The translations under genes and the position numbers were made by a program. A stretch of DNA of 46,213 nt from an uncultured Methanosarcinales archaeon. Its GTDB lineage: Archaea > Nanobdellota > Nanobdellia > Woesearchaeales > JAGVZT01. Positions 2,481-45,829 of this stretch are shown in pieces. The DNA is taken from positions 1 to 46,213 of the forward strand of contig CAYQPU010000009.1 in the NCBI GenBank assembly GCA_964419615.1, in the 5' to 3' direction. Numbering within the stretch: position 1 is the first letter of the stretch; the number at the start of each line of letters is the position of its first letter. Below the pieces are notes generated by a model. It was not told the origin of the DNA. It worked only from the letters and a program-made list of their open reading frames with translations, and did no database searches.

Positions 2481-5400
2481 CTAAATTGGTTTACCCCAAA
2501 TAAAGATTGATCCATCTGTGAATTCTCCATTACATGGTTCTGGTTTTATTAAACGAACGGTCATTGTTATGTCATCACCAGGACTCATTAATGAGTTTGC
2601 ATCAATTATTAGTTCTCTTTGAGTTGGGTTTGAAGTTTCATATGGTATTGAGTCATATCCTTCTGCATCTGCATCAATATTTGTGAATGTTGAATGAACT
2701 CCTTTTACTGCATAATAGCAGAAATTATCACTATCACATCCTTCTTGACCTTCTCCCTCATTATCATTGTTTAGCCTCATTACATTTGAGGTTGGACATT
2801 TGGCTCCTGATGAAGCTGGATCATAAAAGTCGCTTCCAGATATAGTCATGTTAAGAATGACACCACCTTCTGCAAGGTTTGTTATGTAGATTGTATCATA
2901 TGCTGTGTGTCCTGGAAGCACGCTTCCAAAGTTTACATCTCCTTCAATGTCTATGTTTATTTCTGGGTTTAAGAACCAATTTTCTCTTATTGTTGAACCC
3001 CCTCTTAATCCATCAAGGTCTACTGCCTGCCATTGCAGCCAGTGTTCCCCATACATTGAGTTTTCAACTGTGAATGTACATGTGTACCAGGTCATGGTGT
3101 CAGGATTAAATACTGTTAAGTCTTCTTCTCCTTCTTTCATTCCCGGGATCATGTCTGTTCTTCCTAGATCAATGTCACAGTTAGCTTCAATGCAAATATC
3201 CATTGTGCCTTCTGCCGGCATTGCTGCAACAAATACATCATAGATTTTTTCTGGCATTCCATTTTTATCCCAGACAATTATGTCATAAGATAGTTTTTCA
3301 CCTTCAAATGCATAATTATGAGCTCTCTCATCAGCATTATAACCGAGCCATGGGCTTGAGTAGATTGTTCTTGAGCTTGTGTTGATAAATATTCTTGGTG
3401 CAAATTTCCAACCATCGTCTGGGTCGTGTCCGTCAACTAAGCATTCAAAGCATCCTTCATCTACTTCTCCGTCACAGTCATTATCCAGACCATCACAGAT
3501 TTCTTCTTCTTCATAGATTGCTCCAATGCATTGATCCCATTCATCCCATTCACAGCTTCCAGTACAGCCTCTTATTCTGGTTCCGTATTCACATTCTCCT
3601 TCATCTGTTGCTGGACCACAGAATAGATCAATATCAAAGTTTCCTTCTTCACAATCTGCATTACATAGGCCTGCAACACAATAACTGTTTGTGTCTGGTT
3701 CTGAACAGTCAGTTGAGCAGTCTGTACAGCCACAATCTGTATCACATGTATTATCGCATGAGTCTGCAACAATTGTACTGTCCTGGATTTTATCAGAGTC
3801 GTACTCAACTAATTTCTTATCTTCACAATAATCATTATAGGTTTCTGAGCATGTGTTTTCTACGCAATCTGTGTCTTCACCACACTCTGCGCCACATTCT
3901 CCCTCCACACATTCATAGTTAAATGGATCTGGTTCACAAACACAGTCTGTTACACAGTCTCCATAGGAATCTCTTGTTCCAAGTTTTGTTCCTAAACATT
4001 CTTCTGATACTTGGTCACATTGGGTGCTGTCTGAGGTGAGTGGATCACATTCTTCGCCAGGATCTAATACATTATTATCACAGCCTGGAACATATTCATA
4101 TTCACAGCCACAACTGTCTATATTACATGTGTCAATTGTGTTCGGATCTAAATCATCACAATCCAAATCTACTTTACATTCTGCTCCACACACGCCTGCA
4201 ACACAATAACTGTTTGTGCTTGGCTCTGAACAATCTGTTGAGCAGTCTGTACACCCACAATCTGTATCTGTATCACATGTGTTATCACATTGATCTTCAA
4301 CTAATGTGCTGTCCAAGATTTCATCTGAATCATATTCTACTAGTTTTGTATCATCACAATAGTCATTATAGGTTTCTGAGCAGGTGTTTTCTGTGCAATC
4401 TGTGTCTTCATCACACTCTGCACCACATTCGCCTTCAACACATTCATAGTTAAATGGATCTGGTTCACAAACACAGTCTGTTACACAGTCTCCATAAGAG
4501 TCTCTTGTTCCTAATTTTGTTCCCAAACATTCTTCTGATACTTGATCGCATTGGGTGCTATCTGATGTTAATGGATCACATTCTTCGCCAGGATCTAGTA
4601 CATTATTATCACAACCTGGAACATATTCATTTTCACAACCACAATCTGCATTACAGGTGTCAATTGTGTTTGGATCTTGGTCATCACAATCATCATCTGA
4701 GTCGCATTCTGCGCCACATGATCCTTCTAAGCATTGATAATCAAATGGATCTTCTTCACAGACACAATCTGTTACACAGTCTCCATAAGAATCTCTTGAA
4801 CCTGTTTTTGTTCCAAGGCATTCTGATGCTGATTGATCACAATAAGTGCTGTCTGAGGCAAGTGGATCGCATTCTTCACCAGGTCCTAGTTCACCATCAC
4901 CGCAATGGCCGATGTCTTCATACTCACAACCACAGCTGTCTAAATTACAAGTGTCTATTGTGTAAACAAATCCATCATCACAATCATCATCGGAGTCACA
5001 TTCTGCGCCACATTCTCCCTCTACACAATATGGATCTCTGGAAGGTGGTTCACATAATGGACCACAATCTGTACATCCACAGTCATTATCACATATGTTT
5101 AAGCATGATCCTACTACTGTTAGAGTGTCTTGTTGTAAGTTTCCATTATAGTCATATAATTTAGTACCATTAACACAATAATCATCATAATCTTCTCTAC
5201 ATGTATTCATATCACAATCATCAAATGTATCACACTCTGCTCCACATTCTCCTTGTACACATTCATAGTTAAAAGGATCTTCTTCACAGACACAGCCTGA
5301 GTCGCAATCACCATAGCTGTCTCTTGTTCCAAACTTTGTTCCTTGGCAGTCTTGAGTGGATTGACCACAAAAAGTACTATCTGATGCCAATGGATCACAT

Positions 5401-8255
5401 TCTTCACCAGGGTCTAGAATGTTATTGTTACAATCTGGTTGATATTCATTTTCACAACCACATGTGTCTAGATTACAGGTATCAATTGTGTTTGGGTCAA
5501 GATCATCACAATCTGAGTCAGTTTCACATTCTGCTTGACATTCTAAATCACAATACGTGTTTGTTTCTGGGACTGAACAGTCTGGATCACAGTCTGTACA
5601 GTCACATCCACCATCACATGTGTTATCACATGAGTCATCAACAGTTGTGCTGTCTAATGTGTGATCATCATCATATTCTACTAATTTATCACCATCACAA
5701 TAATCATTATAGGTTTCTGAGCAATCGTTTGGATCACAATCATCATTTGAATCACATTCTGCGCCACATGAGCCTTCTAAACATTGATAGTCAAATGGAT
5801 CAAAGTCACATAGGCATGAGTCTGTGCAGTCACCATACAAGTCTCGAGAACCTGTTAGTTGACCTACACAATCTGATGTGGATTGATCACAATATGTACT
5901 GTTTAACTGTTCTGGATCACATTCTTCGCCTGGGTCTAGCTCCTCATTTCCACATAATTCTGCTGGTTGACATTGCATATCGCAGCCATCTGTTCCAGGT
6001 ACTTTTTCATCACAAAATGAATGAGATGTACAACCAGGGAATTGATCTTCACAATTATCATCTTGTAGTTGACAGTTTTGATCACAATAGTCTTGCAAGA
6101 AATCTTCTCCATAATCACATGAAGCATGTACTACATTTGGTGGTTCACATTCTTCTCCGGGATCAATGTGTCCATCTCCACAATATGGTTGTGGATCGTT
6201 TTCACAACCACAGTCTACATTACAAGTATCTATGGTGTTTGGATCTTGATCATCACAATCAGAATCTTCATCACACTCTGCTCCACATGAGCCTTCTAAA
6301 CATTGATAATCAAATGGATCATCTAAACATTCACATACATCATTACAATCTCCATATGAATCTCTGGAGCCTGTTTTATATCCAAGACAATCTGAGGTTG
6401 TTTGATCACAGTAAGTGCTGTTTGTTTGTTCTGGGTCACATTCTTCACCAGGGTTTAGTTCTCCATCCCCACACACATCATCATATTCACAAATACATTC
6501 ATTACAAGTTCCAAAATCTCCACAATCAGAATCTGTTTCACATTCTGCGCCACATTCGGTGTCACAGTAAGAATCTAGTTCTGGTGCTTCACATCCAACT
6601 TCACAATCTGTACATGTACAGTCTCCATCACATGTATTTAGACATTTTTCTTTTATTGTGGTTGAACCTAGGATGTGGTCACCATCATATTCATATAAGT
6701 ATAAACCATCACAATAATCAGTATAAGTTTCTTCACAAGATTCATCTTCACAGTCCCCTGCTGAGTCACACTCTGCCCCACATTCACCTTCTACACATTG
6801 GTAAGTAAATGGGTCGTCAATACAAGAGCAACCTGAGTCACATAGACCAAATGAGTCTCTTACTCCTAGTTTGTATCCATAACAATCTTCGGTTGATTGA
6901 TCACAAGATAATGAGTCCTGACCTGGCGGGTCACATTCTTCGCCTGGATCTATTTCTTGATTACCACAATAAGGATCATATTCATTTTCACAACTGCAAT
7001 CTGAATTACATGTGTCTAATGTGGTTGGATCTGAGTCATCACAATCTGAGTCTTGATCACATTCTGCTCCACAATAACTTTCCACACATTGATAATCAAA
7101 TGGGTCTGGATCACATAAGCATTCATCTGTACAATCTCCATAATCATCTCTTGATCCAAACATAAATCCTAAGCAATCATCAGTTGATTGATCACAATAA
7201 GTACTGTTTAATTCTTCTGGATCACATTCTTCGCCTGGATCTAGTACCTCGTTCCCACATACAGGGTTATATTCATTTTCACAACCACAATCTGAATTAC
7301 ATGTATCTATTGTGTTTGGGTCCTGATCATCACAGTCTGAGTCTGTCTCACATTCTGCTCCGCAACTGTCCTTTACACATTGATAGTTGAAGGGATCATT
7401 TTCACATTCACAAATATCATTACAATCTCCAAGTGCATCTCTGGAACCTGTTTTTGTTCCCAGGCAATCTGATGTGGATTGATCACAGTATGAGCTGTCT
7501 GTTTCTTCTGGATCACATTCTTCGCTTGGATCTAGAATACCATCACCACATTCTGGATCAATATCTTCATAAACATATTTATGTTGCCAAAAGCTGCTTT
7601 CACATAAGCATTCATTGTCCATTTTTGTCCAAACTGAGAAATTGTATTCTCCAACTTGGGTTGGTGTGTATACAAAAGAAACATCAATTGTTTGTGAGAA
7701 AGGTATGTCCACTTGAATGTGGTCTGTTTGTTGATCATTTACATAAAAGTATACATCAACTGTGGAAACATAATAAGGGTCTAGTAAATTCGGTACTTCC
7801 ACACTATTAGTTGAAATATTATGAGACGCAAGAATTCTTGCTTTAACTGTGACTGGTTGGTTTAATTCTAATTGAGAAGGTTGAAGTTTAACCCATTGAA
7901 CTCTTGCTGCGCAATCAACTGCTTTGTCAAAATCTATATTAAAATCCCATGGTCCAAAACCTGTTACTTCTGATGTATCGATTATGTTGATGTTTGGAAA
8001 GTAGCAACCTTTGTAGGTGTATTGCGCATGATATATCATTCCAGGGTCTTGTTCTGGTATTTGGTATTGATTAGGGTTGCCATAAACATCTGCGATCTGA
8101 CTTGTTAATGTGGAACAAGTAATATCTGTACACTTATATACAGTTGTGTGGAAATCTCCATCTGGAGATGTAAGTCTTATGGCAACAGGATATGCTGCTA
8201 CAAACAAGGATAATAATATTAATGTAAATAAAAGTATGAATATTTTCTTCTTCAT
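2481..8255 (-). CDS. Giant (1924 aa) secreted Cys/Asp-rich surface protein: head + Ig-like domain, about 10 CG(D/N)xxLDPGEECD units, CDGLDNDCDG metal-binding motif, C-terminal domain paralogous to 8382-9485 and 13191-14279
   Basis: Signal peptide MKKKIFILLFTLILLSLFVAA from ATG 8255 (SD GGGGGG); repeats and C-terminal motifs (NYAFEGE, DKNG, GAKCPTSN, PEPCNGEFTDGSIFIWGKPI) are visible in the translation. Confidence 0.93.
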   Translation of the reverse strand: MKKKIFILLFTLILLSLFVAAYPVAIRLTSPDGDFHTTVYKCTDITCSTLTSQIADVYGNPNQYQIPEQDPGMIYHAQYTYKGCYFPNINIIDTSEVTGFGPWDFNIDFDKAVDCAARVQWVKLQPSQLELNQPVTVKARILASHNISTNSVEVPNLLDPYYVSTVDVYFYVNDQQTDHIQVDIPFSQTIDVSFVYTPTQVGEYNFSVWTKMDNECLCESSFWQHKYVYEDIDPECGDGILDPSEECDPEETDSSYCDQSTSDCLGTKTGSRDALGDCNDICECENDPFNYQCVKDSCGAECETDSDCDDQDPNTIDTCNSDCGCENEYNPVCGNEVLDPGEECDPEELNSTYCDQSTDDCLGFMFGSRDDYGDCTDECLCDPDPFDYQCVESYCGAECDQDSDCDDSDPTTLDTCNSDCSCENEYDPYCGNQEIDPGEECDPPGQDSLSCDQSTEDCYGYKLGVRDSFGLCDSGCSCIDDPFTYQCVEGECGAECDSAGDCEDESCEETYTDYCDGLYLYEYDGDHILGSTTIKEKCLNTCDGDCTCTDCEVGCEAPELDSYCDTECGAECETDSDCGDFGTCNECICEYDDVCGDGELNPGEECDPEQTNSTYCDQTTSDCLGYKTGSRDSYGDCNDVCECLDDPFDYQCLEGSCGAECDEDSDCDDQDPNTIDTCNVDCGCENDPQPYCGDGHIDPGEECEPPNVVHASCDYGEDFLQDYCDQNCQLQDDNCEDQFPGCTSHSFCDEKVPGTDGCDMQCQPAELCGNEELDPGEECDPEQLNSTYCDQSTSDCVGQLTGSRDLYGDCTDSCLCDFDPFDYQCLEGSCGAECDSNDDCDPNDCSETYNDYCDGDKLVEYDDDHTLDSTTVDDSCDNTCDGGCDCTDCDPDCSVPETNTYCDLECQAECETDSDCDDLDPNTIDTCNLDTCGCENEYQPDCNNNILDPGEECDPLASDSTFCGQSTQDCQGTKFGTRDSYGDCDSGCVCEEDPFNYECVQGECGAECDTFDDCDMNTCREDYDDYCVNGTKLYDYNGNLQQDTLTVVGSCLNICDNDCGCTDCGPLCEPPSRDPYCVEGECGAECDSDDDCDDGFVYTIDTCNLDSCGCEYEDIGHCGDGELGPGEECDPLASDSTYCDQSASECLGTKTGSRDSYGDCVTDCVCEEDPFDYQCLEGSCGAECDSDDDCDDQDPNTIDTCNADCGCENEYVPGCDNNVLDPGEECDPLTSDSTQCDQVSEECLGTKLGTRDSYGDCVTDCVCEPDPFNYECVEGECGAECDEDTDCTENTCSETYNDYCDDTKLVEYDSDEILDSTLVEDQCDNTCDTDTDCGCTDCSTDCSEPSTNSYCVAGVCGAECKVDLDCDDLDPNTIDTCNIDSCGCEYEYVPGCDNNVLDPGEECDPLTSDSTQCDQVSEECLGTKLGTRDSYGDCVTDCVCEPDPFNYECVEGECGAECGEDTDCVENTCSETYNDYCEDKKLVEYDSDKIQDSTIVADSCDNTCDTDCGCTDCSTDCSEPDTNSYCVAGLCNADCEEGNFDIDLFCGPATDEGECEYGTRIRGCTGSCEWDEWDQCIGAIYEEEEICDGLDNDCDGEVDEGCFECLVDGHDPDDGWKFAPRIFINTSSRTIYSSPWLGYNADERAHNYAFEGEKLSYDIIVWDKNGMPEKIYDVFVAAMPAEGTMDICIEANCDIDLGRTDMIPGMKEGEEDLTVFNPDTMTWYTCTFTVENSMYGEHWLQWQAVDLDGLRGGSTIRENWFLNPEINIDIEGDVNFGSVLPGHTAYDTIYITNLAEGGVILNMTISGSDFYDPASSGAKCPTSNVMRLNNDNEGEGQEGCDSDNFCYYAVKGVHSTFTNIDADAEGYDSIPYETSNPTQRELIIDANSLMSPGDDITMTVRLIKPEPCNGEFTDGSIFIWGKPI
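3650..7550 (-). repeat. Intragenic tandem Cys-rich repeat array: 9 full units + 1 variant, joined by short and long linker modules
   Basis: Unit C-x5-DPGEECDP..S..CDQ...C.G.K.G.RD..GDC..C.C..DPF.Y.C....CGAEC; short linker D.DC.D.DP.T.DTCN.C.CE.EY; long linker with Y.DYC...L.EY...T....C.NTCD occurs 5 times; last two blocks repeat with a 531-nt period (3910 vs 4441). Confidence 0.92.
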
Positions 8256-8302
8256 AGTTTCCCCCCACAACAACTACAACTATTCTTGAGTAGTACTACC
8301 AA

Positions 8303-25561: not shown

Positions 25562-26392
25562 ATGGATATAACATTTATTATACCTGTTTATAATGAGCAG
25601 TTAAGTATTAGGAAAACAATTGAGGAAATTAAGGCACAAAAACCTGCCCAAATTATTGTTGTTGATGATGCTTCTACTGATGCAAGCTTTAGTATTCTTA
25701 AGAAAATCAAGGGAATTATGCTATTGCAGCACTCTTATAACAAAGGATACTCGTCTTCTATTAAAACAGCATTGAGAGTTGCAAAATCAGAATATGTATG
25801 TATTACCGATGCTGATGGTACATACCCTATTAATGAGTTTCCAAAGCTAGAACGATTTGTTAAAGATTATGATATGGTTGTTGGAGCAAGAGCAAAGCAA
25901 AACATACCTTTAATAAGAAAACCTGCAAAGTGGTTTTTAAGGATTTTGGCTAATTATCTTGCAGGAAGAAAGATACCAGATCTTAATTCGGGATTTAGGA
26001 TTTTTAATAAAAATATGGCTATGGAGTTTTTTCATTTGTATCCACAAAGGTTTTCTTTTACAGTTACTATCACACTTGCTTTTCTTACATCAGGTTATAG
26101 TGTTAAGTATGTTCCAATTAGTTATCATAAAAGAAAAGGTAAATCATCAATTAAGCCAAAACATTTTATTGAATTTATTAATTTGATTTTAAGGGTTGTA
26201 ACTTATTTTAATCCATTTAAGATATTTTTTACATTTTCAATATTACTCTTTTTATTAGCAGGGTTTGTTTTCATGTACTCCAAACTGGTTTTGGGAAGAG
26301 TTATGGATATTACTACGATTATTATTGCCCTTTCATCACTGCAGGTGTTTTTGTTTGGGCTTGTTGCTGATATGATTGCTAAAAGAAAATGA
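25562..26392 (+). CDS. GT2 glycosyltransferase (polyprenol-phosphate glycosyltransferase-like) with two C-terminal TM helices
   Basis: IIPVYNE, VVDDASTD, ITDADGTYP, DMVVGAR, DLNSGFR. Confidence 0.93.
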   Translation: MDITFIIPVYNEQLSIRKTIEEIKAQKPAQIIVVDDASTDASFSILKKIKGIMLLQHSYNKGYSSSIKTALRVAKSEYVCITDADGTYPINEFPKLERFVKDYDMVVGARAKQNIPLIRKPAKWFLRILANYLAGRKIPDLNSGFRIFNKNMAMEFFHLYPQRFSFTVTITLAFLTSGYSVKYVPISYHKRKGKSSIKPKHFIEFINLILRVVTYFNPFKIFFTFSILLFLLAGFVFMYSKLVLGRVMDITTIIIALSSLQVFLFGLVADMIAKRK

Positions 26393-27801
26393 AAATATTA
26401 TTGATTAATCCACCACTTGACAACATGCTTAGTAGTGAGGTTCCTTCTGTTGTGACTGAGGAACGAGGCCATAATCCACCAATTGGATTGTTGTATGTTG
26501 GAGCGAGTTTACAAAGAGCAAATTTTAATGTTGAGATTATTGATGCGCAGGCAGAAGAGCTTACTTATGATCAGCTTAAGAGGAGGATTGAGAGGTCAAA
26601 TCCAGATGTTGTTGGATTGTCTGTTACAACTTTTACATTAATTGATGGCTTGATTACTGCTCGAATTGCAAAAGAGATTAATCCAAATGTTAAGGTTATT
26701 TTTGGTGGAGCACACGTTCATATTTATCCAATACAGACTATTAATCTTAAGGAAGTTGATTTTTTAATTTTGGGAGAGGCTGAAAAGCCAATTGTTGATT
26801 TGATTAAGAATATTGATAATCCTGATAAGTTAAAGAATGTTGATAATCTTATCTATAAGCTTGATGGTAAGGTTGTGCAGAATCCATGGAAAGGTTATGA
26901 AGAAGATCTTGATGATTTGGCTTTTCCAGCTCGACATTTGACAAATCATAAGTTGTATTCTTCTTTGCTTGCTAAGAGGAATCCAGTTACAACTATGATC
27001 ACAAGTCGAGGTTGTCCGTATAATTGTTTGTTTTGTAATAGACCTAATATGGGCAAGTTGTTTAGAGCACGATCTCCTAATAATGTTGTTGATGAAATGG
27101 AAGAATGTGTGAATATGGGTATTAAAGAGTTTTTGATTTATGATGATACTTTTACTATTGATAGAAAAAGGGTTATTGGTATTGCTGATGAGATTAGGAA
27201 AAGAAAGCTTGATATTGGCTGGGATATTAGGGCAAGGATTAATACTATTGATTTAGCTATGCTTCAAAAGATTAAGAAGGCAGGTTGTGAGAGGATTCAT
27301 TATGGTGTTGAAGCTGGTAATCAGAAGATTTTGAATATTTTAAGAAAAGGTATTACAATTAAAGAAACAACAGCTGCCTTTAAGGTTACAAAGAAGACAG
27401 GAATTAGTACACTAGCTTATTTTATGATTGGATCTCCAAAAGAGACAGATAAGACAATTATGCAGACTATAAATTTTGCCAAGAAGCTTGATCCGGATTA
27501 TATTCATTTTTCTATTACTACTCCCTTTCCTGCAACTGATTTGTATGTTAGAGCACTGCAAGAAGGGATTATTAAAAAAGATGTTTGGCTTGAGTATGCA
27601 ACTAACCCAGATAAGAATTTTGTCCCACCACTTTATGAAGAGAATCTTAATAGAGATGAGTTGATTGGTTACCTCAAGTTAGCTTACAAGAGTTTTTACA
27701 CTAGGCCAAGTTATATTGTTAGAAGGGTTGCAAGTATTAGATCTCCTGGAGAGTTTAGAAGAAAGGTTAAAGCAGGTCTTAAGGTCCTGACAACCCGCTG
27801 A
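26389..27801 (+). CDS. B12-binding (class B-like) radical SAM protein
   Basis: LLINPP, PPIGLLYVGA, IFGGAHV, TSRGCPYNCLFC (CxxxCxxC), DDTFT, YGVEAG. Confidence 0.93.
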   Translation: MKILLINPPLDNMLSSEVPSVVTEERGHNPPIGLLYVGASLQRANFNVEIIDAQAEELTYDQLKRRIERSNPDVVGLSVTTFTLIDGLITARIAKEINPNVKVIFGGAHVHIYPIQTINLKEVDFLILGEAEKPIVDLIKNIDNPDKLKNVDNLIYKLDGKVVQNPWKGYEEDLDDLAFPARHLTNHKLYSSLLAKRNPVTTMITSRGCPYNCLFCNRPNMGKLFRARSPNNVVDEMEECVNMGIKEFLIYDDTFTIDRKRVIGIADEIRKRKLDIGWDIRARINTIDLAMLQKIKKAGCERIHYGVEAGNQKILNILRKGITIKETTAAFKVTKKTGISTLAYFMIGSPKETDKTIMQTINFAKKLDPDYIHFSITTPFPATDLYVRALQEGIIKKDVWLEYATNPDKNFVPPLYEENLNRDELIGYLKLAYKSFYTRPSYIVRRVASIRSPGEFRRKVKAGLKVLTTR

Positions 27802-28991: not shown

Positions 28992-30413
28992 TTATAATTT
29001 TAATTTGGATTCAATTACAGCTTTAGCAATCCCTGGACCGCGCAGTAAACTTAGTTTTGCTAAATGTAGCATACCTCCTTCTTGGTAAGCCATCTTGATT
29101 AGTTTTGTGAATTCTCCAGATTGTAGGAATTTTCTATAAACGGAGTTTTTTCCAAGTTCATATAGTTTATTTGTTTGTTTGGCACTAAGTGTTGGAAGAT
29201 CAACTATTGCTCCTTTTGCACCATCAAAGTCTTGCCAGGAGTCATATCTTAACCAACCATTTTGTTTGGCTGTTTCAAAATAAGGTGTACCTGGGTATGG
29301 TGTGCAGATGCTTATTTGATATGAATCCCCATATTCCATTGCAAATCTTATTGTATCTTTGACTTTCTTTTCTGTATCACCAGGAAGACCAATTGCATAG
29401 GTTAAGTGAGTTCTTATTCCCAAGTCTTTGCAATTTTTTACAGCTTTTTTAACTGAGTCTATTGTGATGCCTTTGCCAAGCTGTTTTAATACATCATCAC
29501 TGCTTGATTCAACCCCAAATTTTAATGCAGTACATCCAGCTCTTTTCATTAGTTTCAGTGTTTGTTTAGTTATTTTGCTATGAGCCATAGCACTAAATGG
29601 AATGTCAATTTTGCGTTTGATTTTTTGTTCACAGAATTTTTCTAGTTGGTCTGGTTTTCCATTAACTAAATCATCATCAAAGTAGAATTCCTTTGGATTG
29701 TATTTTTCAATGCAATGCTCTATTTCATCCAAGATGTCACTTGGATTTCTAAATCTATAATTTCTACCACCATACATCATAAAGATTGTACAGTATGAAC
29801 AGCGGTAATAACAGCCTCTTGATGCGAGCATTTGTATGTTTGGATAGTTATTGCAGAATGGTTCATTGTATAAACTCATGTCAAACATGTGGCGTGCTGG
29901 CCAAGGTATTTTATTGATGTCAACTAATTCTTTGACTCTGATTATTTTTTCTTTTGGTTTTTTTGATTTACTGTCAACTATGTTCTTAAGCAAGAATTCA
30001 TATTCTCCAATCAAGGCATGATCAACAAATTTGTTTTTTACAACTTTGTCTGGAAGTGCAGATACATGCTGACCACCTAGTACTATTTTAGCATTTGTGA
30101 TTTGTTTTATTTTGTCCATAAACCACATATCATTGTGATAAGATGGTGTTGCGATCTCAGAGAAAACAAGATCAGGTTTGAATTTTTCTACCTGTTTTAG
30201 GAATTCATTTTCAGGTATGTTTTGGGCAAGAGCATCTATCACACCAACTGTGTGGTTTTTTTCAAGCAAAGCTGCTGCACTTCCCAAATAAAATGGAAAA
30301 GGTCTATAGCTTACTATTTTCTGGTTTTTACTGTGACTGTGTGCCCACCTAGAACCAGCTCTAACAGCATAATCTTTGCCTCTCCAAGGTGGATTTACAA
30401 GTAGGATTTTCAT
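28992..30413 (-). CDS. B12-binding radical SAM protein (HpnJ-like N-terminus)
   Basis: LLVNPPW..RAGSRW, ASRGCYYRCSYC, DDDLVN, FGVESSSD. Confidence 0.92.
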   Translation of the reverse strand: MKILLVNPPWRGKDYAVRAGSRWAHSHSKNQKIVSYRPFPFYLGSAAALLEKNHTVGVIDALAQNIPENEFLKQVEKFKPDLVFSEIATPSYHNDMWFMDKIKQITNAKIVLGGQHVSALPDKVVKNKFVDHALIGEYEFLLKNIVDSKSKKPKEKIIRVKELVDINKIPWPARHMFDMSLYNEPFCNNYPNIQMLASRGCYYRCSYCTIFMMYGGRNYRFRNPSDILDEIEHCIEKYNPKEFYFDDDLVNGKPDQLEKFCEQKIKRKIDIPFSAMAHSKITKQTLKLMKRAGCTALKFGVESSSDDVLKQLGKGITIDSVKKAVKNCKDLGIRTHLTYAIGLPGDTEKKVKDTIRFAMEYGDSYQISICTPYPGTPYFETAKQNGWLRYDSWQDFDGAKGAIVDLPTLSAKQTNKLYELGKNSVYRKFLQSGEFTKLIKMAYQEGGMLHLAKLSLLRGPGIAKAVIESKLKL

Positions 30414-32119: not shown

Positions 32120-33239
32120 TAGAATTATAAAAATTCTCAATTTTATTAGTAATTATGTCCCAATCAAAGTTTTGCTCTGTTTTCTTTCGACCGTGTTTTG
32201 CAAATTTAGCTGCTTTTTTCTGGTCTTTGAGAAGAAATTGGATTTTTTCTGCCAAGGATTCAATATTTCTTTGCTTGACTAAGAATCCGTTTTTATTATT
32301 GTCTATTACATCAACCACACCATCTGAGTAATATGCAATACAAGGAACATTACAGGCAAATGCTTCAACCAACACCATTCCAAATCCTTCTCTTGTTGAG
32401 GGTAAAATTAGGATTTGGGATTTTTTTACCTCTTTTACTAGATCTTTGTATTTGATTTTTCCAAAGAACTTGATTGTTTTGTCTAATCTTTTTTGTTTGG
32501 TTAGGTTTTTTAGTTTGCTCTGCTCTTGACCACTTCCAACAATTTTTAGTTTTACTTTTGGAATTTCTTTTTTTACCAATTCAATTGCTTTTATCAAATC
32601 ATCAACATGCTTATGTGGTATCAATCTTCCAACATATACCACTGTTTTTGTATCTTTAGTTTTTATTTTTATACTGTCAATTAGCTTTATATCTACTCCA
32701 TCACCAATTACTTTGATTTTATGAGATTTTAATTTATATTCACTGACCATTCTTTTTTTGACTACTGTTCCTACTGTAAGAATTTTATTAAAAGGAAGAT
32801 GAAGCAGAATCTTTTCTGATAGTTCTGCAAATTTTCTTGATTGTACCCATTGATCTGATTTTCCTGAACTTAGGTCATGTACAACTGTGATTGTTTTGGC
32901 TGATTTGAAAAGCCCAATTAGTGAGACCGGAACCATACTTACCCAGGCGTTTGCTTCAATAATGTCATATTTTTTGTTTGACAACCATTTGATTGCAGCG
33001 AGTATAAACTTTAAGAAATCAAGTTTTGTTCTCTTTGGTGGTTTTGCAATAACTGGACCAATATGATGAACATTTATGCCATCTATTTTTTCATAGTTCT
33101 TTACTCCTTTTATCTTCATACAGATAAGATCTACATGATGACCTTTCTTAACTAGTCTTTTGAGTATTTCATAATATCTTCTTTCTCCACCACCTTGATA
33201 GTGAGGTACAAAAAAATCTGTTACTATACATATTTTCAT
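32109..33239 (-). CDS. GT4 glycosyltransferase
   Basis: Start MKICIV at 33239 (overlaps upstream stop); GGGERR, YVGRLIPHK, PSTREGFGMVLVEAFAC. Confidence 0.93.
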   Translation of the reverse strand: MKICIVTDFFVPHYQGGGERRYYEILKRLVKKGHHVDLICMKIKGVKNYEKIDGINVHHIGPVIAKPPKRTKLDFLKFILAAIKWLSNKKYDIIEANAWVSMVPVSLIGLFKSAKTITVVHDLSSGKSDQWVQSRKFAELSEKILLHLPFNKILTVGTVVKKRMVSEYKLKSHKIKVIGDGVDIKLIDSIKIKTKDTKTVVYVGRLIPHKHVDDLIKAIELVKKEIPKVKLKIVGSGQEQSKLKNLTKQKRLDKTIKFFGKIKYKDLVKEVKKSQILILPSTREGFGMVLVEAFACNVPCIAYYSDGVVDVIDNNKNGFLVKQRNIESLAEKIQFLLKDQKKAAKFAKHGRKKTEQNFDWDIITNKIENFYNSIKR

Positions 33240-34351
33240 TTTGAGTATAATTTTTCTACTTGATTTGATATGTTTTTCCAGTTGTAGTGTTTGATTATTT
33301 CTTTTTGTTCTTTTGTGCATTTGTTGTAAAGTTTTTTGTCTTTGAATAGTTGGGATAGTTTAAGTGCAAGATCTTGTGGGTTTTTCGGTTTGAAGAATAA
33401 GCCACCCTTGTCTTTTGATACTTCTTTGTATGGTGGGATATCAGAACATACAAATGGTGTTTGACAGGCAATTGCTTCAAGTAGTGTTATTCCAAATCCT
33501 TCAACAACACTTGGTGAACAAAAGATGTGGCTTTTTTTCATTACTTTTAATACATCTTTGTGTTCATCTAAGAAGCCTAAGAATTCAACATTTTTAGGAG
33601 CTTGTTTTTCAAGCTCTGCTTTGGCTGGTCCTAATCCAACAATTTTGCACTGAATTGGTTGTTTGATTAGTTTTACTGCTTTTATTAAGTCAATTACTCT
33701 CTTGTGCTCTGTGATTCTTCCAGTAAAACAGATTGTTGGTTTTTTGTACTTTGTTGTTTTGAATTTATATTCTTCTAAATCTACACCGTTGTGAATAACA
33801 TGAATGTTTTTGTTTTTAATTCCATGTTTGACTAGTAATTGTTTTGTGAAGTCTGATACAGCAATAATGTTTGTGTTAGTTAGTTTTGATAGGAATAAGA
33901 CTTTTCTTTCAAATAATTCTCCGATTATTCCAAGAAAGTTAGTGTTTTTTATCCAGCTTCCAATCCAGACTTCATGATAGGTTAGAAATCTTTTTGCTTT
34001 ATTGAATACTGTTGCTATAAATGCACTTGGATACGCAAAAAAGCTGCAGCCCTCAACCACATGAATTTGTCTTTTATTTACAAGAGCTCTTGCTTTTAAT
34101 CCTGCAACTGCACTAAACAACATTCTTTGAGTGAGATGGCCTGTTTGAGTGTAAGGGTATTTTGGGCCAACTCTTAATACATTTATGCCTTCAAGTTTGT
34201 ATTGTCTTTTTTTGCCTTTATAAGAGGTTAGCACATAAACAGTGTGTTTTTTAGCTAGCTCTTTTGCGACATTATAGGCCCTTGATTCAATTCCTCCAGT
34301 GATGTCTGTACTTGACTCTGGGAAGAATTCGGTTATTAGTATTATGTTCAT
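33236..34351 (-). CDS. GT4 glycosyltransferase
   Basis: GGIESR, NGVDLEEY, FTGRITEHK, PSVVEGFGITLLEAIAC. Confidence 0.93.
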   Translation of the reverse strand: MNIILITEFFPESSTDITGGIESRAYNVAKELAKKHTVYVLTSYKGKKRQYKLEGINVLRVGPKYPYTQTGHLTQRMLFSAVAGLKARALVNKRQIHVVEGCSFFAYPSAFIATVFNKAKRFLTYHEVWIGSWIKNTNFLGIIGELFERKVLFLSKLTNTNIIAVSDFTKQLLVKHGIKNKNIHVIHNGVDLEEYKFKTTKYKKPTICFTGRITEHKRVIDLIKAVKLIKQPIQCKIVGLGPAKAELEKQAPKNVEFLGFLDEHKDVLKVMKKSHIFCSPSVVEGFGITLLEAIACQTPFVCSDIPPYKEVSKDKGGLFFKPKNPQDLALKLSQLFKDKKLYNKCTKEQKEIIKHYNWKNISNQVEKLYSK

Positions 34352-34385: not shown

Positions 34386-35273
34386 CTACAAAATTTGATA
34401 GGGCATGTGAAGTTTTTGTGCTACATCAACCATAATGTCAACAACACTATCACCAAATTCCAGTGCTGCAGGAGTATTTCTGTAATCTTGACCACTAACT
34501 GTTCGAGGCACATTTATGGTAACCATGGTCTGCTTTTTTGGTAGATACACTTTGGATTCCTGATCTTCTGGAATTTCCGAGTATTGAAAACCAAATTCTG
34601 GTAGAATCTCATTATTTATTCTTCTAAATACCCATGGTTCAAATTCTTGTTTTAATAATTTAAGTAGTCCAGAGCTTAGTTTTTCTGCATAATTGATAAG
34701 TTCATTTTCTACAATATTTATTGCAATGGCGCCATTTTCAACATTCAACATCTCAGGGTACTCCATAATTGAAGGTAGTCCTATTAATGAGGTAAGATTA
34801 TAATCTTGGATAAATTCGTGATTTTGTTGAACACTTGACCCGGTAAGAAGAGTAATATATGGTCCATCAATACCCATTTTTTCAATTAACTTTCTAAATT
34901 CTTTTGGCCATTTTTTGTCTCCTTGAACAACTACTCCATCTTTGTCTAGTATGAGTAATTCAATTCCTTTTTGAGCAGCTTTGCTGTAAAAGTCAATGAC
35001 TCCAAATATTGCTTCTTTTTCAGATACAAAACCATACTTGAGAGCAGCAACTTTTTCTTTTACACTATCCAGAGCATTTGCAGGAGCGCATGCATAACCT
35101 AATCCATCTAATTCTAGCATAGGTAAGTCATTTTCTCCATCTCCCATTGTTCCCACCTTACTTAATGGAACATTATACCTATCTGCGACTAAAGTTGCAG
35201 ATTCATCTTTTGTTATTAGTGCTGCATCTATTGCAGCTGGGGATTTTGATATTATGACTTTTCTTTGATTCAT
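34386..35273 (-). CDS. Circularly permuted Cof-type (HAD IIB) phosphatase
   Basis: Motif order III (K22), IV (GDGENDLPML 44-53), APANA (63-67), then I (LILDKDG, D110/D112), II (LLTGS, T144), ENGA (179-182), cap. Confidence 0.88.
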   Translation of the reverse strand: MNQRKVIISKSPAAIDAALITKDESATLVADRYNVPLSKVGTMGDGENDLPMLELDGLGYACAPANALDSVKEKVAALKYGFVSEKEAIFGVIDFYSKAAQKGIELLILDKDGVVVQGDKKWPKEFRKLIEKMGIDGPYITLLTGSSVQQNHEFIQDYNLTSLIGLPSIMEYPEMLNVENGAIAINIVENELINYAEKLSSGLLKLLKQEFEPWVFRRINNEILPEFGFQYSEIPEDQESKVYLPKKQTMVTINVPRTVSGQDYRNTPAALEFGDSVVDIMVDVAQKLHMPYQIL

Positions 35274-35342: not shown

Positions 35343-35666
35343 CTATTTCTTAGATTTGGCTATTTCTCTTACTATCTTTGTTAGATCTTGTCCTGTTTCA
35401 TCTAATTTGACATAGACTCTGAAGATTAGGTAGAATAGTACAATAATGCTGATGGCAATCAAGAAGTCCATTCCCCTTCTAAATCCTGCTTTGTTTGACA
35501 GGTAATTTAATAGACCTGGAAAAAACGCAAAACCCATTGCTCCAGTCCAAATACCTGACCAGAATAAAAATTCACCAAGTTTGATCTTGTTTTCTCTATA
35601 TCTTAAAAAAGCTCGACTTATGGCAAACAATCCAAAAACAATTACAATTATGTGTATTAAGCTCAT
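35343..35666 (-). CDS. DUF2304 family membrane protein
   Basis: Three TM segments; FLFWSGIW..FFP; G..RGMD; LTKIVREIA; adjacent to a GT2 gene. Confidence 0.88.
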   Translation of the reverse strand: MSLIHIIVIVFGLFAISRAFLRYRENKIKLGEFLFWSGIWTGAMGFAFFPGLLNYLSNKAGFRRGMDFLIAISIIVLFYLIFRVYVKLDETGQDLTKIVREIAKSKK

Positions 35667-35670
35667 TTTT

Positions 35671-36348
35671 TCACCTCAAGAGTTTGTTTATTATCATTTT
35701 AAAAAATATTTTAAAGGCGCTTGTTTTAAACTGCTGACCATGTTTTATTGAGTAGTCTGTGTATTTTATATCAACTGGAATTTCTCTGAACTTTAGTTTG
35801 TATTTATGGATTTTTTCTGGAATTTCAGAGGCATGCTCCATTCTGTCTCCTTGAATTTTGATCTTTTGAGCTGCTTTCCTTGAAAAAGCTCGAAGGCCAT
35901 TGTGAGAGTCTGTAAGCTTTATGCCATACATTAAGAATATTACCAGTGCCCCTACCTTTAGATATGATCTTCTGATTAAAGATACATTTTGGTTTTGTTT
36001 TAAGAATCTTGAGCCAAGTGTTACATCAACCTTGCCTTCTTTAACAGGCTTAATCATTTTTTCAATATCTTTTGTCTGATGCTGGCCATCTGCATCAAAT
36101 GTGACAATAATATCAGCTCCTTGCTCGAGTGCATACTCTATGCCTGTTCTTAGAGCTGCTCCCTGACCTCTGTTAATTACATGTCTTAGAGCATGAACTT
36201 TTTGCTTTTTAGCTATTTTGTAGGTGTTGTCTTTGCTATTATCATCTACAACTACAATATTATGGTATTTAGCTTTTTTAAGATCTCCAATTACAGTTCC
36301 AATCATCCCAGCTTCATTATAAGCTGGAATAACAATATATACCCCCAT
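35671..36348 (-). CDS. GT2 glycosyltransferase (dolichol-phosphate mannose synthase-like)
   Basis: VIPAYNEA, VVDDNSKD, NRGQGAALRTG, TFDADGQH, GSRF, DSHNGLRAF. Confidence 0.93.
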   Translation of the reverse strand: MGVYIVIPAYNEAGMIGTVIGDLKKAKYHNIVVVDDNSKDNTYKIAKKQKVHALRHVINRGQGAALRTGIEYALEQGADIIVTFDADGQHQTKDIEKMIKPVKEGKVDVTLGSRFLKQNQNVSLIRRSYLKVGALVIFLMYGIKLTDSHNGLRAFSRKAAQKIKIQGDRMEHASEIPEKIHKYKLKFREIPVDIKYTDYSIKHGQQFKTSAFKIFFKMIINKLLR

Positions 36349-42821: not shown

Positions 42822-43538
42822 ATGGGGGATGAATCAAAGATTAAAGTATCTGTAGTTATGCCTACGTTAAACGAGGCTGGAAACATCACAAAGATGATAG
42901 ATGATGTTGAGGCTGTTTTTAAAGAACATGATCTCAAAGGAGAGATTGTTGTTGTGGATGACCATAGTGAGGATAGGACTGCTGATATTGCTAAAAACCT
43001 AAATAACAAGTATGGAAATGTTAGAGTTATTGTTAGAAATGTTAGAGATGGTGCTGGTGCCGCCCATTTGGTTGGTTACCAGGCTGCAGAAGGAGAGATT
43101 GTAATTCCTATTGAAGCAGATTGTTCTTGTGATGTTTCTGATATTGCAAATCTTGTTAAAAAAATTGATGAGGGTTATGATGTTGTTGTGGCATCTAGAT
43201 ATGCCAAAGGTGGGAGAAATACCAAAACAACTGCAACACTTAGCAGGTTTGCAAATATTGTTATTTCAAAGATCACAAGAATACCTATTAATGAGTTTAC
43301 TATTGCTTATAGAGCTTTTAGAAAAGAGGTTGTTGATAAACTTAATTTAGTTGAAAAGGATGGAAATGCTTTACTTGTTGAATTTTTATTTAAAGCGCAT
43401 AGGGCAGGATATAAGATTGGAGAGATTCCAACCAAGTATTCAGCTTATAGAAAGTATGGTACAACAAAGAATGTGATTATTAGAGCTGGATTTAATACAT
43501 TTAAAGCATTAGGGAGGATATACATTACAGGAAAATGA
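42822..43538 (+). CDS. GT2 glycosyltransferase (DPM1-like)
   Basis: VVMPTLNEA, VVDDHSED, IEADCS, DVVVASRY. Confidence 0.92.
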   Translation: MGDESKIKVSVVMPTLNEAGNITKMIDDVEAVFKEHDLKGEIVVVDDHSEDRTADIAKNLNNKYGNVRVIVRNVRDGAGAAHLVGYQAAEGEIVIPIEADCSCDVSDIANLVKKIDEGYDVVVASRYAKGGRNTKTTATLSRFANIVISKITRIPINEFTIAYRAFRKEVVDKLNLVEKDGNALLVEFLFKAHRAGYKIGEIPTKYSAYRKYGTTKNVIIRAGFNTFKALGRIYITGK

Positions 43539-44560
43539 TTATAAGAGCAAAGTCACCAATGAGAGTTAGTTTTGCAGGAGGAGGTACAGATGTAAGTCCT
43601 TTTTGTGAGGATTATGGTGGAAGTGTTGTTAATGTTACTTTGAATAAGTATGCTTGGGCAACTTTGAAAACAAATACTCCAAGGGGAGTTGAATTAGTGT
43701 CTGATGATTTTCGTCAAAGATTTATGTTTAATTCTGTTAATGATATGAAATATGATGGTAATCTTGACCTGATTAAATCAGTTATTTCAAAGTTTAATGA
43801 TATGGATAGTAATTTTAGTATTTTTCTAAGATCAGATGTTCCACCCAGGTCTGGCTTAGGTTCATCTGCCTCAGCATTTGTTTCTGTTATTGGATTATTC
43901 AATCATTTAAAAAAACACGAAAGAATATCTGATTATGAAATAGCAGAACTTGCATTTAAACTTGAAAGAGAAGAGCTCAGAAATGCAGGAGGTAGACAAG
44001 ACCAGTATGCAACTGTATTTGGCGGTCTAAACCAAATTGAGTTTAAGGGCTCTGACTTTGTGAGAGTAAATCCGCTTAGACTAAAAAAACATCATCTTTT
44101 AGAACTAGAGAAGCACATGGTACTTGTGAACCTTGGGAAAAGAAAAGATTCAGGAGACATTATAAAAGATCAGGTTAATAGATATAAAAAAGGGAAAACA
44201 GAGGATGCTTTATTGCATGCAAAAGATCTTGCAGAAGAGACAAAATCCAGCCTATTGAGTGGTGATTTTAACAGGTTTGGGAAGTTGATTCATGAAGCAT
44301 GGGAAACAAAGAAGAAATACAGCCCTATGATATCTAATAAAAGAATAGACAAGATCTATGATCTCGCACGCAAGCATGGTGCATTAGGTGGCAAGATTAG
44401 TGGAGCTGGAGGCGGTGGGCATGCTATGTTTTACTGTGAACCTAATAAGGAACAGATTGTTGCACGAAAACTGACAAAGGCCGGAGTCAAGGTGATTAAC
44501 TTTAGTTTTGATTTTGAAGGTTTACAAACGTGGGAGGTTAAGAGTGGAAGACCATATTAA
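43535..44560 (+). CDS. hddA: GHMP kinase, D-glycero-alpha-D-manno-heptose-7-phosphate kinase
   Basis: PMRVSFAGGGTDV, PPRSGLGSSAS, GGRQDQYA, GGKISGAGGGG. Confidence 0.9.
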   Translation: MIIRAKSPMRVSFAGGGTDVSPFCEDYGGSVVNVTLNKYAWATLKTNTPRGVELVSDDFRQRFMFNSVNDMKYDGNLDLIKSVISKFNDMDSNFSIFLRSDVPPRSGLGSSASAFVSVIGLFNHLKKHERISDYEIAELAFKLEREELRNAGGRQDQYATVFGGLNQIEFKGSDFVRVNPLRLKKHHLLELEKHMVLVNLGKRKDSGDIIKDQVNRYKKGKTEDALLHAKDLAEETKSSLLSGDFNRFGKLIHEAWETKKKYSPMISNKRIDKIYDLARKHGALGGKISGAGGGGHAMFYCEPNKEQIVARKLTKAGVKVINFSFDFEGLQTWEVKSGRPY

Positions 44561-45116
44561 AAAAAGGATAAGTGAAAGTATCAAAACAAAACAAAAAGTA
44601 ATTGATAATCTGCTCCCACAAATAACCAGTGTTATTAAGATTATGCTTGATTCTTACAGGAATGGAGGCAAGCTTGTTATTTTTGGAAATGGGGGAAGTG
44701 CTTCTGATGCGCAACACATTGTAGGTGAGTTAGTTAACAGATTATATTTTAACAGACCTATGCTCGAGGCTATTGCTTTGAATGTAAATTCTTCTGTGAT
44801 AACTGCTATTGGAAATGATCATAGTTATGATTATATTTTTGCAAGACAAGTTGAAAGCTTGGTTAAGGAAAATGATGTTGTTATTGGCCTTAGTACAAGT
44901 GGTAATTCCATGAATGTATTGCAAGGTTTACTTGCAGCAAAAGAAAGAGGTGCAACCACTGTTGCTTTTACAGGGGAGACTGGGGGAAAGTTAAAACCTA
45001 TAGCTGATATTTTAGTTAATGTTCCTTCAAAGGATGTAGCAAGAATCCAAGAGGCGCATATCACTATAGGTCACATTATATGCGAGATGATTGAGCACAG
45101 TATGTTTAAAAAATGA
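44544..45116 (+). CDS. gmhA: Phosphoheptose isomerase (SIS domain)
   Basis: FGNGGSASDAQH, GNDHSYDYIFARQV, STSGNS, RIQEAH; GTG 44544 with SD GGGAGG. Confidence 0.95.
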   Translation: MEDHIKKRISESIKTKQKVIDNLLPQITSVIKIMLDSYRNGGKLVIFGNGGSASDAQHIVGELVNRLYFNRPMLEAIALNVNSSVITAIGNDHSYDYIFARQVESLVKENDVVIGLSTSGNSMNVLQGLLAAKERGATTVAFTGETGGKLKPIADILVNVPSKDVARIQEAHITIGHIICEMIEHSMFKK

Positions 45117-45829
45117 GAGCTTTTATTGGTACTGGTGGCAAAGGTAAGAGATTATTGCCTCTAACTTCTAATATACCTAAACCAATGGTGAAGCTTAATG
45201 GGATTCCAATTCTTGAGCGTTTAGTTTTATGGTTAAAAGAGTATGGTATTAATGAGATTGTTATGCTGAATGGTCATATGCATGATGTGATTGTTAATTA
45301 TTTTAAAGATGGTTCTAAGTGGGGAGTTAAGATCTGGCATTCAAATGAACCTAAGCCTCTTGGAAGCGGAGGTCCGTTAAGGTATGCAAAGAAGTTTGTT
45401 AATGGAAGGTTTGTTTATCTTAGTGGAGATATTGCATGCAAGGTTGATTTGAAAAAAATGATAGATGTTCACAAAGAGGCTAACAAGAAAGGTGCTATTA
45501 TGAGTGTTTTTTTACATGAATCATCTCATCCAGAAGATAGTGATATCTTGGTGCTGGGTGAGGATAATAAGGTTGCTAGGTTTGTGAGCAAGCATGATGA
45601 TCACACTAATACTGGTAATTTAGGTAATGCTGGAATTAGTATTTTGGAACCAGAGGTTATTGATTACATGCAAGAAGAAGTTTTTACTTATGAGGGTTAT
45701 CTATATCCAAGATTGTTAAAAGCTGGAGAGTATATTTATGGTTATGTGAGTGAGGATTTTGTTAAGGATATTGGAACTATTGAAAGGCTAAGAGAGGTTG
45801 AAGATTATTACAAGGAAAAAGGATACTAG
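45113..45829 (+). CDS. hddC: Sugar-phosphate nucleotidyltransferase (heptose-1-P guanylyltransferase-like)
   Basis: GGKGKRLLPLT..PKPM, EPKPLGSGG, SGD, HPEDSD, DIGT; follows hddA-gmhA. Confidence 0.8.
   Translation: MRAFIGTGGKGKRLLPLTSNIPKPMVKLNGIPILERLVLWLKEYGINEIVMLNGHMHDVIVNYFKDGSKWGVKIWHSNEPKPLGSGGPLRYAKKFVNGRFVYLSGDIACKVDLKKMIDVHKEANKKGAIMSVFLHESSHPEDSDILVLGEDNKVARFVSKHDDHTNTGNLGNAGISILEPEVIDYMQEEVFTYEGYLYPRLLKAGEYIYGYVSEDFVKDIGTIERLREVEDYYKEKGY

Follow-up and report, generated by a model that had tools for sequence, protein, structure and literature searches.

Contig CAYQPU010000009.1 carries on its minus strand a gene whose product, P0001, contains the catalytic motifs of the HAD-IIB phosphatases in a rotated order; the whole stretch analysed (positions 1 to 46,213 of the forward strand, i.e. 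46,213 nt) is referred to as the window in the following. Few enzyme superfamilies are as large or as well studied as the HAD superfamily, whose members are classified on the basis of the order of motifs I to IV along the chain and of the site of cap insertion. In P0001 the chain passes through motif III (K22), motif IV (GDGEND), motif I (DKDG), motif II (T144) and, then, the cap, so that the order is III-IV-I-II instead of I-II-III-IV: judged from sequence, homology to the HAD superfamily is retained and connectivity is not. A first-pass annotation had described the protein in these terms, with all catalytic residues in a single open reading frame (ORF). Indeed, the residues it listed (K22, GDGEND, PANA, DKDG, TGS and ENGA) all occupy the numbers it assigned in the translation, and 34386-35273 (-) reads 295 amino acids without interruption. 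The gene and its parts are as follows.

34386..35273, minus strand: permuted HAD-IIB protein P0001, an uninterrupted ORF of 295 amino acids plus a TAG stop
35220..35273, minus strand: residues 1-18, the new N-terminus, with cap β-strands 6-10 and 14-18 (DSSP and hhalign mapping)
35208..35210, minus strand: K22, the motif III lysine, invariant in an alignment of 54 family members
35127..35144, minus strand: GDGEND 44-49, motif IV, with the predicted Mg-binding acids D45 and D49 (family conservation)
34959..34982, minus strand: residues 98-105, the junction from the ancestral C-terminal helix (88-101) to the ancestral first strand (106-109)
34935..34946, minus strand: DKDG 110-113, motif I, with the putative nucleophile D110 and acid/base D112 (alignment conservation)
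34836..34844, minus strand: TGS 144-146, motif II, with S or T at 144 in 100% of members
34728..34739, minus strand: ENGA 179-182, where core strand S3 ends and the chain hinges towards the cap (conservation and model)
34389..34727, minus strand: residues 183-295, C2B-type α/β cap, with the C-terminal strand 292-294

The PANA signature corresponds to residues 64-67, and the DxD of motif I sits at the end of a hydrophobic strand (LLILDKDG, 106-113). We consider it highly probable that the gene is genuine and intact and that P0001 is a HAD-IIB (Cof/SPP-like) enzyme with a natural circular permutation, for which a role as a sugar-phosphate phosphatase is proposed.

Evidence for circular permutation

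The Pfam Hydrolase_3 model recognizes P0001 with 57 bits (cut-off 20.9), the match being split over two stretches; residues 20-75 fall on positions 186-239 of the 255 of this profile, and residues 106-161 on positions 4-59 of the S6PP profile. The NCBIfam Cof, phosphoglycolate-phosphatase and sugar-phosphatase models also yield swapped pieces, all of them below cut-off (38 bits vs. 137 for TIGR00099; 19.3 vs. 41.8 for TIGR01484). In the opposite direction, a profile of the P0001 family matches canonical Cof-type proteins with the order swapped in 29 of 29 cases, its positions ~100-165 aligning to the N-terminus and ~15-100 to the C-terminus of the target, and a profile search of the PDB gives the same swap on PfHAD1 (4qjb) and no collinear solved relative. 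When the family and canonical Cof profiles are compared in native order with hhalign, two pieces are obtained, columns 24-103 against canonical 193-265 (score 114.5) and columns 105-216 against canonical 3-98 (score 66.7). Alignment of a self-concatenated profile is the classic test of circular permutation. The doubled profile, made by concatenating the family alignment to itself, gave a single collinear hhalign alignment to the canonical Cof profile, in which columns 105-402 pair with 3-265 of 279 (248 aligned columns, probability 99.4%, E 4.1e-21, score 164) and the path runs from residue 101 to 295 and then from 1 to 99, a result well outside what chance would give. The swapped-order pieces that the first-pass annotation predicted for profile searches were, therefore, seen with Pfam, NCBIfam and PDB profiles.

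The structure predicted by AlphaFold2 (AF2) from the family alignment is a confident single-domain model, with a mean predicted local distance difference test score (pLDDT) of 97.3, a predicted template-modelling score (pTM) of 0.92 and pLDDT >90 in 293 of the 295 residues, junction included. Starting from residue 106, the modelled core comprises S1 (106-109), flap bridges (short strands at 112, 116-117 and 120), a helix, S2 (139-143), helices and S3 (176-178), followed by the cap (183-295 and then 1-18), the K22 helix, S4 (40-43), a helix, S5 (60-63), a further helix, S6 (81-83) and the terminal helix (88-101). Rotated in this way, the order of the elements equals the native order of a canonical relative, P0081, modelled likewise. 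The C2B α/β cap lies between S3 and the motif III helix, as in HAD-IIB proteins, being composed of 183-295 and 1-18, and the old termini are bridged by a 4-residue loop. The hhalign mapping pairs strands 292-294 and 6-10 with the first and second strands, respectively, of the final β-hairpin in the canonical cap; because the C- and N-terminal strands map to its two strands, the cut is placed at the turn of this hairpin. The predicted secondary structure (helix 88-101, strand 106-109) also agrees with the earlier proposals that the old C-terminal helix is joined to the old first strand and that the new termini are found in the C2 cap. The pTM, the order of the elements and residue conservation are, thus, consistent with a single HAD core and a single cap being rebuilt in the predicted fold with both core-cap hinges kept.

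A different way to complete the active site would be complementation between chains, motifs III-IV of one subunit combining with motifs I-II of another in a domain-swapped dimer. The short junction loop of the model and the fact that permuted proteins sometimes swap give this arrangement a general plausibility, but the model is a compact monomer whose scores remain high through the junction, and we judge a domain swap highly improbable.

Sequential structural aligners behave as would be the case for a permuted HAD chain. With the permuted model, a Foldseek search of the PDB returned no match at E<=1e-3 (template-modelling score, TM, <=0.34) and local pieces only, such as 1kyt (65 columns, root-mean-square deviation, rmsd, 1.7 Å), vs. 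225 matches for a canonical control model (best E 2.9e-23, TM up to 0.83). ESM-Atlas models of Hydrolase_3/S6PP proteins superpose on residues 103-295 (149 residues, rmsd 2.8 Å), and in VIA the first ~175 residues of HAD-IIB chains (Trypanosoma cruzi phosphomannomutase, PMM, and trehalose-6-phosphate phosphatases) align to 100-295 of the model with Z scores of 6.1-6.5. These searches are no evidence of a new fold, piecewise HAD matches along with generic Rossmann-like or periplasmic-binding-protein ones (Z about 8) being normal for such aligners on a permuted chain.

The rotated order is shared by a family of homologues. A word-based search found only the fragment of P0001 itself, and the relatives surfaced with an exhaustive phmmer search (117 representatives at E<=1e-3, 44 at E<=1e-30). 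About 60 representative clusters, mostly of 283-324 amino acids, align to P0001 end to end with 24-43% identity, and all members with exact patterns carry GDxxND at about residue 44 and DxDG at about residue 110. In the 54-member alignment, on which all conservation figures are based, K22, D49 and S/T at 144 are present in 100% of the sequences, D45 and D110 in 98%, D112 in 94%, G113 in at least 94%, E179, N180 and G181 in at least 93%, and G44, N151, K247 and P256 in at least 90% each; motif I takes the form D[KR]DGV. Conserved residues of the cap are Q238, K247, T252, N254, P256, R265 and S/T267. Both termini lie at nearly the same place across the family, and the length of the junction loop is fixed in 47 of the 54 members, five having 8 extra residues between Y96 and D110. 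Such a conserved rotated family indicates that the HAD fold tolerates fused termini together with a break inside the cap, and provides a natural template for the engineering of split or permuted HAD enzymes. No HAD with the order III-IV-I-II was known to the first-pass annotation, and full-text literature searches likewise turned up no description of a permuted HAD, their matches being on other families, e.g. GH70.

Intact full-length copies are present in 8 of 401 sampled genomes of the window's phylum, distributed over four families and six genera, and one named family member comes from a Woesearchaeota archaeon. Source annotations of the members read ‘HAD hydrolase family protein’, ‘hypothetical protein’ or similar. 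Pfam and NCBIfam models detect a fragment or nothing in many of them (P0047 and P0058, for instance, have no Pfam match above cut-off), which amounts to an annotation gap. The family is rare and widely scattered, and probably mobile. One member, P0009 (L029:7001-7897), comes from a 199-kb contig whose genes are of proteobacterial type (exonuclease I and a PqqF-like peptidase), and the second gene downstream of it is that of an IS66 transposase; the G + C content of this member, 35% vs. 41% for its locus, suggests, at the level of base composition, horizontal transfer between domains. Genome G346 encodes, two genes further downstream than the active copy, a paralogue of 328 amino acids that shares the permuted order (L023:8922-9908 (+)). 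K22, motif IV and both aspartates of motif I have been lost from this paralogue, which has no Pfam match and is probably a catalytically dead pseudo-enzyme.

As to its relation to known systems, P0001 has in common with the Cof-type HAD-IIB phosphatases (PF08282; YidA, 1rkq; the Bacillus subtilis protein 1nrw; BT4131, 1ymq; PfHAD1, 4qjb) the four catalytic motifs, the GDGxND, PxNA and ENG signatures, the two-hinge C2B cap and, in the predicted model, a Rossmannoid core whose S1 is followed by a flap hairpin, and the Cof-type and rotated family profiles match with an E value of 4e-21. However, the order is I-II-cap-III-IV in the Cof-type enzymes and III-IV-I-II-cap in P0001, in which the old ends are joined and the last cap hairpin holds the new ones. 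Sucrose-6F-phosphate, trehalose-6-phosphate and mannosyl-3-phosphoglycerate phosphatases and eukaryotic-type PMM also have an N-terminal core and cap that superpose on residues 100-295 and work beside glycosyltransferases or nucleotidyltransferases, a context similar to that of P0001, but their order is canonical, their sequence similarity to P0001 is weak and no family-level hidden Markov model (HMM) match exceeds the cut-off.

Tandem Cof-Cof fusions (P0080, P0085 and P0097, of 534-573 amino acids) are collinear with residues 18-184 of P0001 through motifs III-IV of their first domain and I-II of their second. Unlike P0001, they consist of two complete domains; their architecture is that expected of a duplication intermediate, although their ancestry to the permuted family is unproven. 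Most likely, a Cof-type gene was duplicated in tandem, the copies were fused and both ends were then lost, which gave the permutation; this route fits because such fusions exist and are collinear across the domain junction. These present-day proteins, thus, point to a possible evolutionary path.

Independent assemblies and a nonsense allele

That the gene could be an assembly chimera, the risk named in the first-pass annotation, or two broken HAD genes fused together has a negligible probability. Two other assemblies, L001 (from ENA) and L002 (from JGI), match the window collinearly across the whole gene, junction included, which makes three independent assemblies with the same arrangement; moreover, about 60 homologous clusters keep the order and intact copies are found in the 8 genomes mentioned above.

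The same assemblies also provide evidence that counts against an intact and needed gene. At position 34937, the first base of the G113 codon, GGA of the window is replaced by TGA in both L001 and L002. In L002 this is the sole mismatch in 981 bp; in L001 it is one of two differences in 5395 aligned bp, and the second, a 1-bp indel, apparently falls within the adjacent GT4 gene, for which two ORFs are called there. The TGA splits the permuted gene into gene calls of 112 and 163 amino acids (L001:3650-4537; L002:3-761). Translation of TGA as glycine (genetic code 25) was considered for this allele and rejected, since TGA ends many long ORFs of the window, including those at overlapping ATGA junctions. 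TGA being a true stop in this genome, null alleles of the permuted gene therefore circulate in the population, and the gene may be dispensable in part of it. The changes found in L001 and L002 resemble strain-level loss of surface-glycan genes.

It might, then, be asked whether the window copy is a decaying relic, the family being functional elsewhere and the gene being on its way out in this lineage. The occurrence of the TGA in two independent, otherwise near-identical assemblies, the indel in the adjacent GT4 gene of L001 and the absence of the gene from a genome of the same genus (G020) are in line with such decay. The window allele, however, is intact, keeps every residue conserved in the family and matches the family profile end to end with 358 bits, and we regard a relic as very unlikely, an intact gene for a permuted HAD-IIB enzyme being the preferred reading.

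Gene neighbourhoods and candidate function

In the window, the permuted gene belongs to a long glycosylation island with four GT4, three GT2 and two B12-radical-SAM genes, AglB/STT3, a PMT_2 protein and a flippase. The neighbours most relevant to its function are listed here.

35343..36348, minus strand: upstream GT2 (PpgS-like) and small membrane protein (DUF2304), same strand as the permuted gene
33236..34351, minus strand: downstream GT4 glycosyltransferase, same strand
43535..45829, plus strand: HddA-like GHMP kinase, GmhA-like SIS_2 isomerase and sugar-1-phosphate nucleotidyltransferase, a trio of nucleoside diphosphate (NDP)-heptose type

The best NCBIfam match of the upstream GT2 is the polyprenyl-phospho-N-acetylgalactosaminyl synthase PpgS (202 bits, below cut-off), and the pair it forms with the DUF2304 protein presumably resembles the mycobacterial PpgS gene with its small membrane-protein neighbour; the same pair is also found near the permuted HAD in L008 and L021. 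There is no GmhB-like phosphatase within the window. A second, complete heptose-type cluster, which includes GmhB, is present on another contig of the same genome (L030, G000 C28: 7500-17500); its further genes, one for a transaldolase/FSA and two that are IMPase-like, make it look as though the cluster encoded its own precursor supply.

At many other loci, a nucleotidyltransferase, SIS_2, an HddA-like kinase, glycosyltransferases or EamA transporters are found beside the permuted gene. GmhA-like, HddA-like, GmhB-like and dehydratase genes surround it in L003, G346, G373, G229, G304, G362 and the P0061 locus. On the same contig and within 10 kb, SIS_2 occurs in 6 of the 8 carrier genomes, vs. 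99 of 401 genomes of the phylum sample with SIS_2 anywhere (Fisher's test, p = 0.004; 0.008 by a rough genus-level count, related genomes not being independent). From these contexts we infer that the permuted protein would be a Mg-dependent sugar-phosphate phosphatase acting in glycan or NDP-heptose gene clusters; its Cof-type signatures likewise favour a phosphatase, and the conserved K247 and R265 of the cap suggest, as far as conservation can tell, an anionic substrate, possibly a bisphosphate. Two features of the neighbourhoods add to the nonsense allele in weighing against this picture. Five loci have no sugar genes near the permuted gene, and a GmhB-like phosphatase gene co-occurs in five heptose-type loci. 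Other loci have NUDIX genes, EamA transporters or unrelated genes nearby.

In the model, the first residues lie where the final β-hairpin of the canonical cap would turn, and the chain proceeds through the motif III helix, S4 (motif IV), S5 and S6 to the old C-terminal helix, from which the 4-residue loop leads to the old first strand S1 (motif I), S2 (motif II), S3 and most of the cap. In the proposed mechanism, D110 would form the aspartyl-phosphate with D112 as acid/base, T144 and K22 would hold the phosphate and D45 and D49 the Mg2+ ion, while the substrate would be selected by conserved polar and basic residues of the cap (K247, R265 and others) and the product would serve glycan or NDP-heptose-type sugar biosynthesis.

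The same permuted fold could, instead, support a phosphomutase converting the 6- or 7-phosphate of a sugar into the 1-phosphate form required by the neighbouring nucleotidyltransferase. Eukaryotic-type phosphomannomutases are HAD-IIB proteins. The permuted gene indeed adjoins a sugar-1-phosphate nucleotidyltransferase gene, which is the very next gene in L003 and L005, where the stop and start codons overlap, and the one immediately before it in G362; among HAD-IIB chains, VIA ranks the T. cruzi phosphomannomutase best (Z 6.5, model 102-295 vs. chain 1-171), and K247 and R265 could bind a second phosphate. On the other hand, the VIA Z scores tie PMM with trehalose-6-phosphate phosphatases, the Pfam PMM model (PF03332) is not among the matches of P0001 at E<=10, and the GDGxND, PxNA and ENG signatures along with all HMM matches are of the Cof/SPP/phosphoglycolate-phosphatase type. 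A phosphomutase is, on balance, unlikely, and a phosphatase remains the preferred assignment.

GmhB, the HAD-IIIA D-glycero-D-manno-heptose-1,7-bisphosphate 7-phosphatase, is also a HAD phosphatase of the heptose-type clusters in which the permuted protein is found. GmhB, however, is capless, has the canonical order and belongs to a different subfamily, P0001 does not match TIGR00213 or TIGR01656 (GmhB, HAD-IIIA) and the GmhB-like genes are separate ORFs. Because GmhB-like genes are found in five of the same loci, the two are probably not equivalent, and a simple replacement of GmhB, which was considered, is unlikely. Only tentatively, and with more doubt than belief, can it be proposed that the permuted family is a dedicated, unrecognized enzyme of an NDP-heptose-type pathway in DPANN-like archaea and some bacteria; for example, it could be a bisphosphate phosphatase by which a heptose precursor is supplied or processed alongside GmhA, HddA, HddC and GmhB, and the location of the termini in the cap may have altered substrate gating with respect to every known HAD. 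In any case, the family offers a lead to an uncharacterized step of glycan or heptose biosynthesis in ultra-small archaea.

Some further observations concern the genes around the permuted HAD. Two pairs of unannotated genes recur beside it at unrelated loci, namely L005:8336-9493 and L019:2324-3496 (385 and 390 amino acids, 38% identity) and L008:6915-7805 and L022:9760-10653 (296 and 297 amino acids, 36% identity), and these neighbours may be its functional partners. In G229, the permuted gene and a Cof-like HAD-IIB gene of canonical order (L022:8796-9620 (-)) are two genes apart, separated by an EamA transporter. Genes for B12-binding radical SAM proteins occur among the glycosyltransferases both in the window (26389-27801 (+) and 28992-30413 (-)) and in the glycan island of a distant relative (L003:1133-2644 and 5842-7383). 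Finally, among other ORFs of the window, two of 923 (20381-23152 (-)) and 288 amino acids (23154-24020 (-)) have no Pfam match, and one of 1930 amino acids is located near the window start (2481-8273 (-)).
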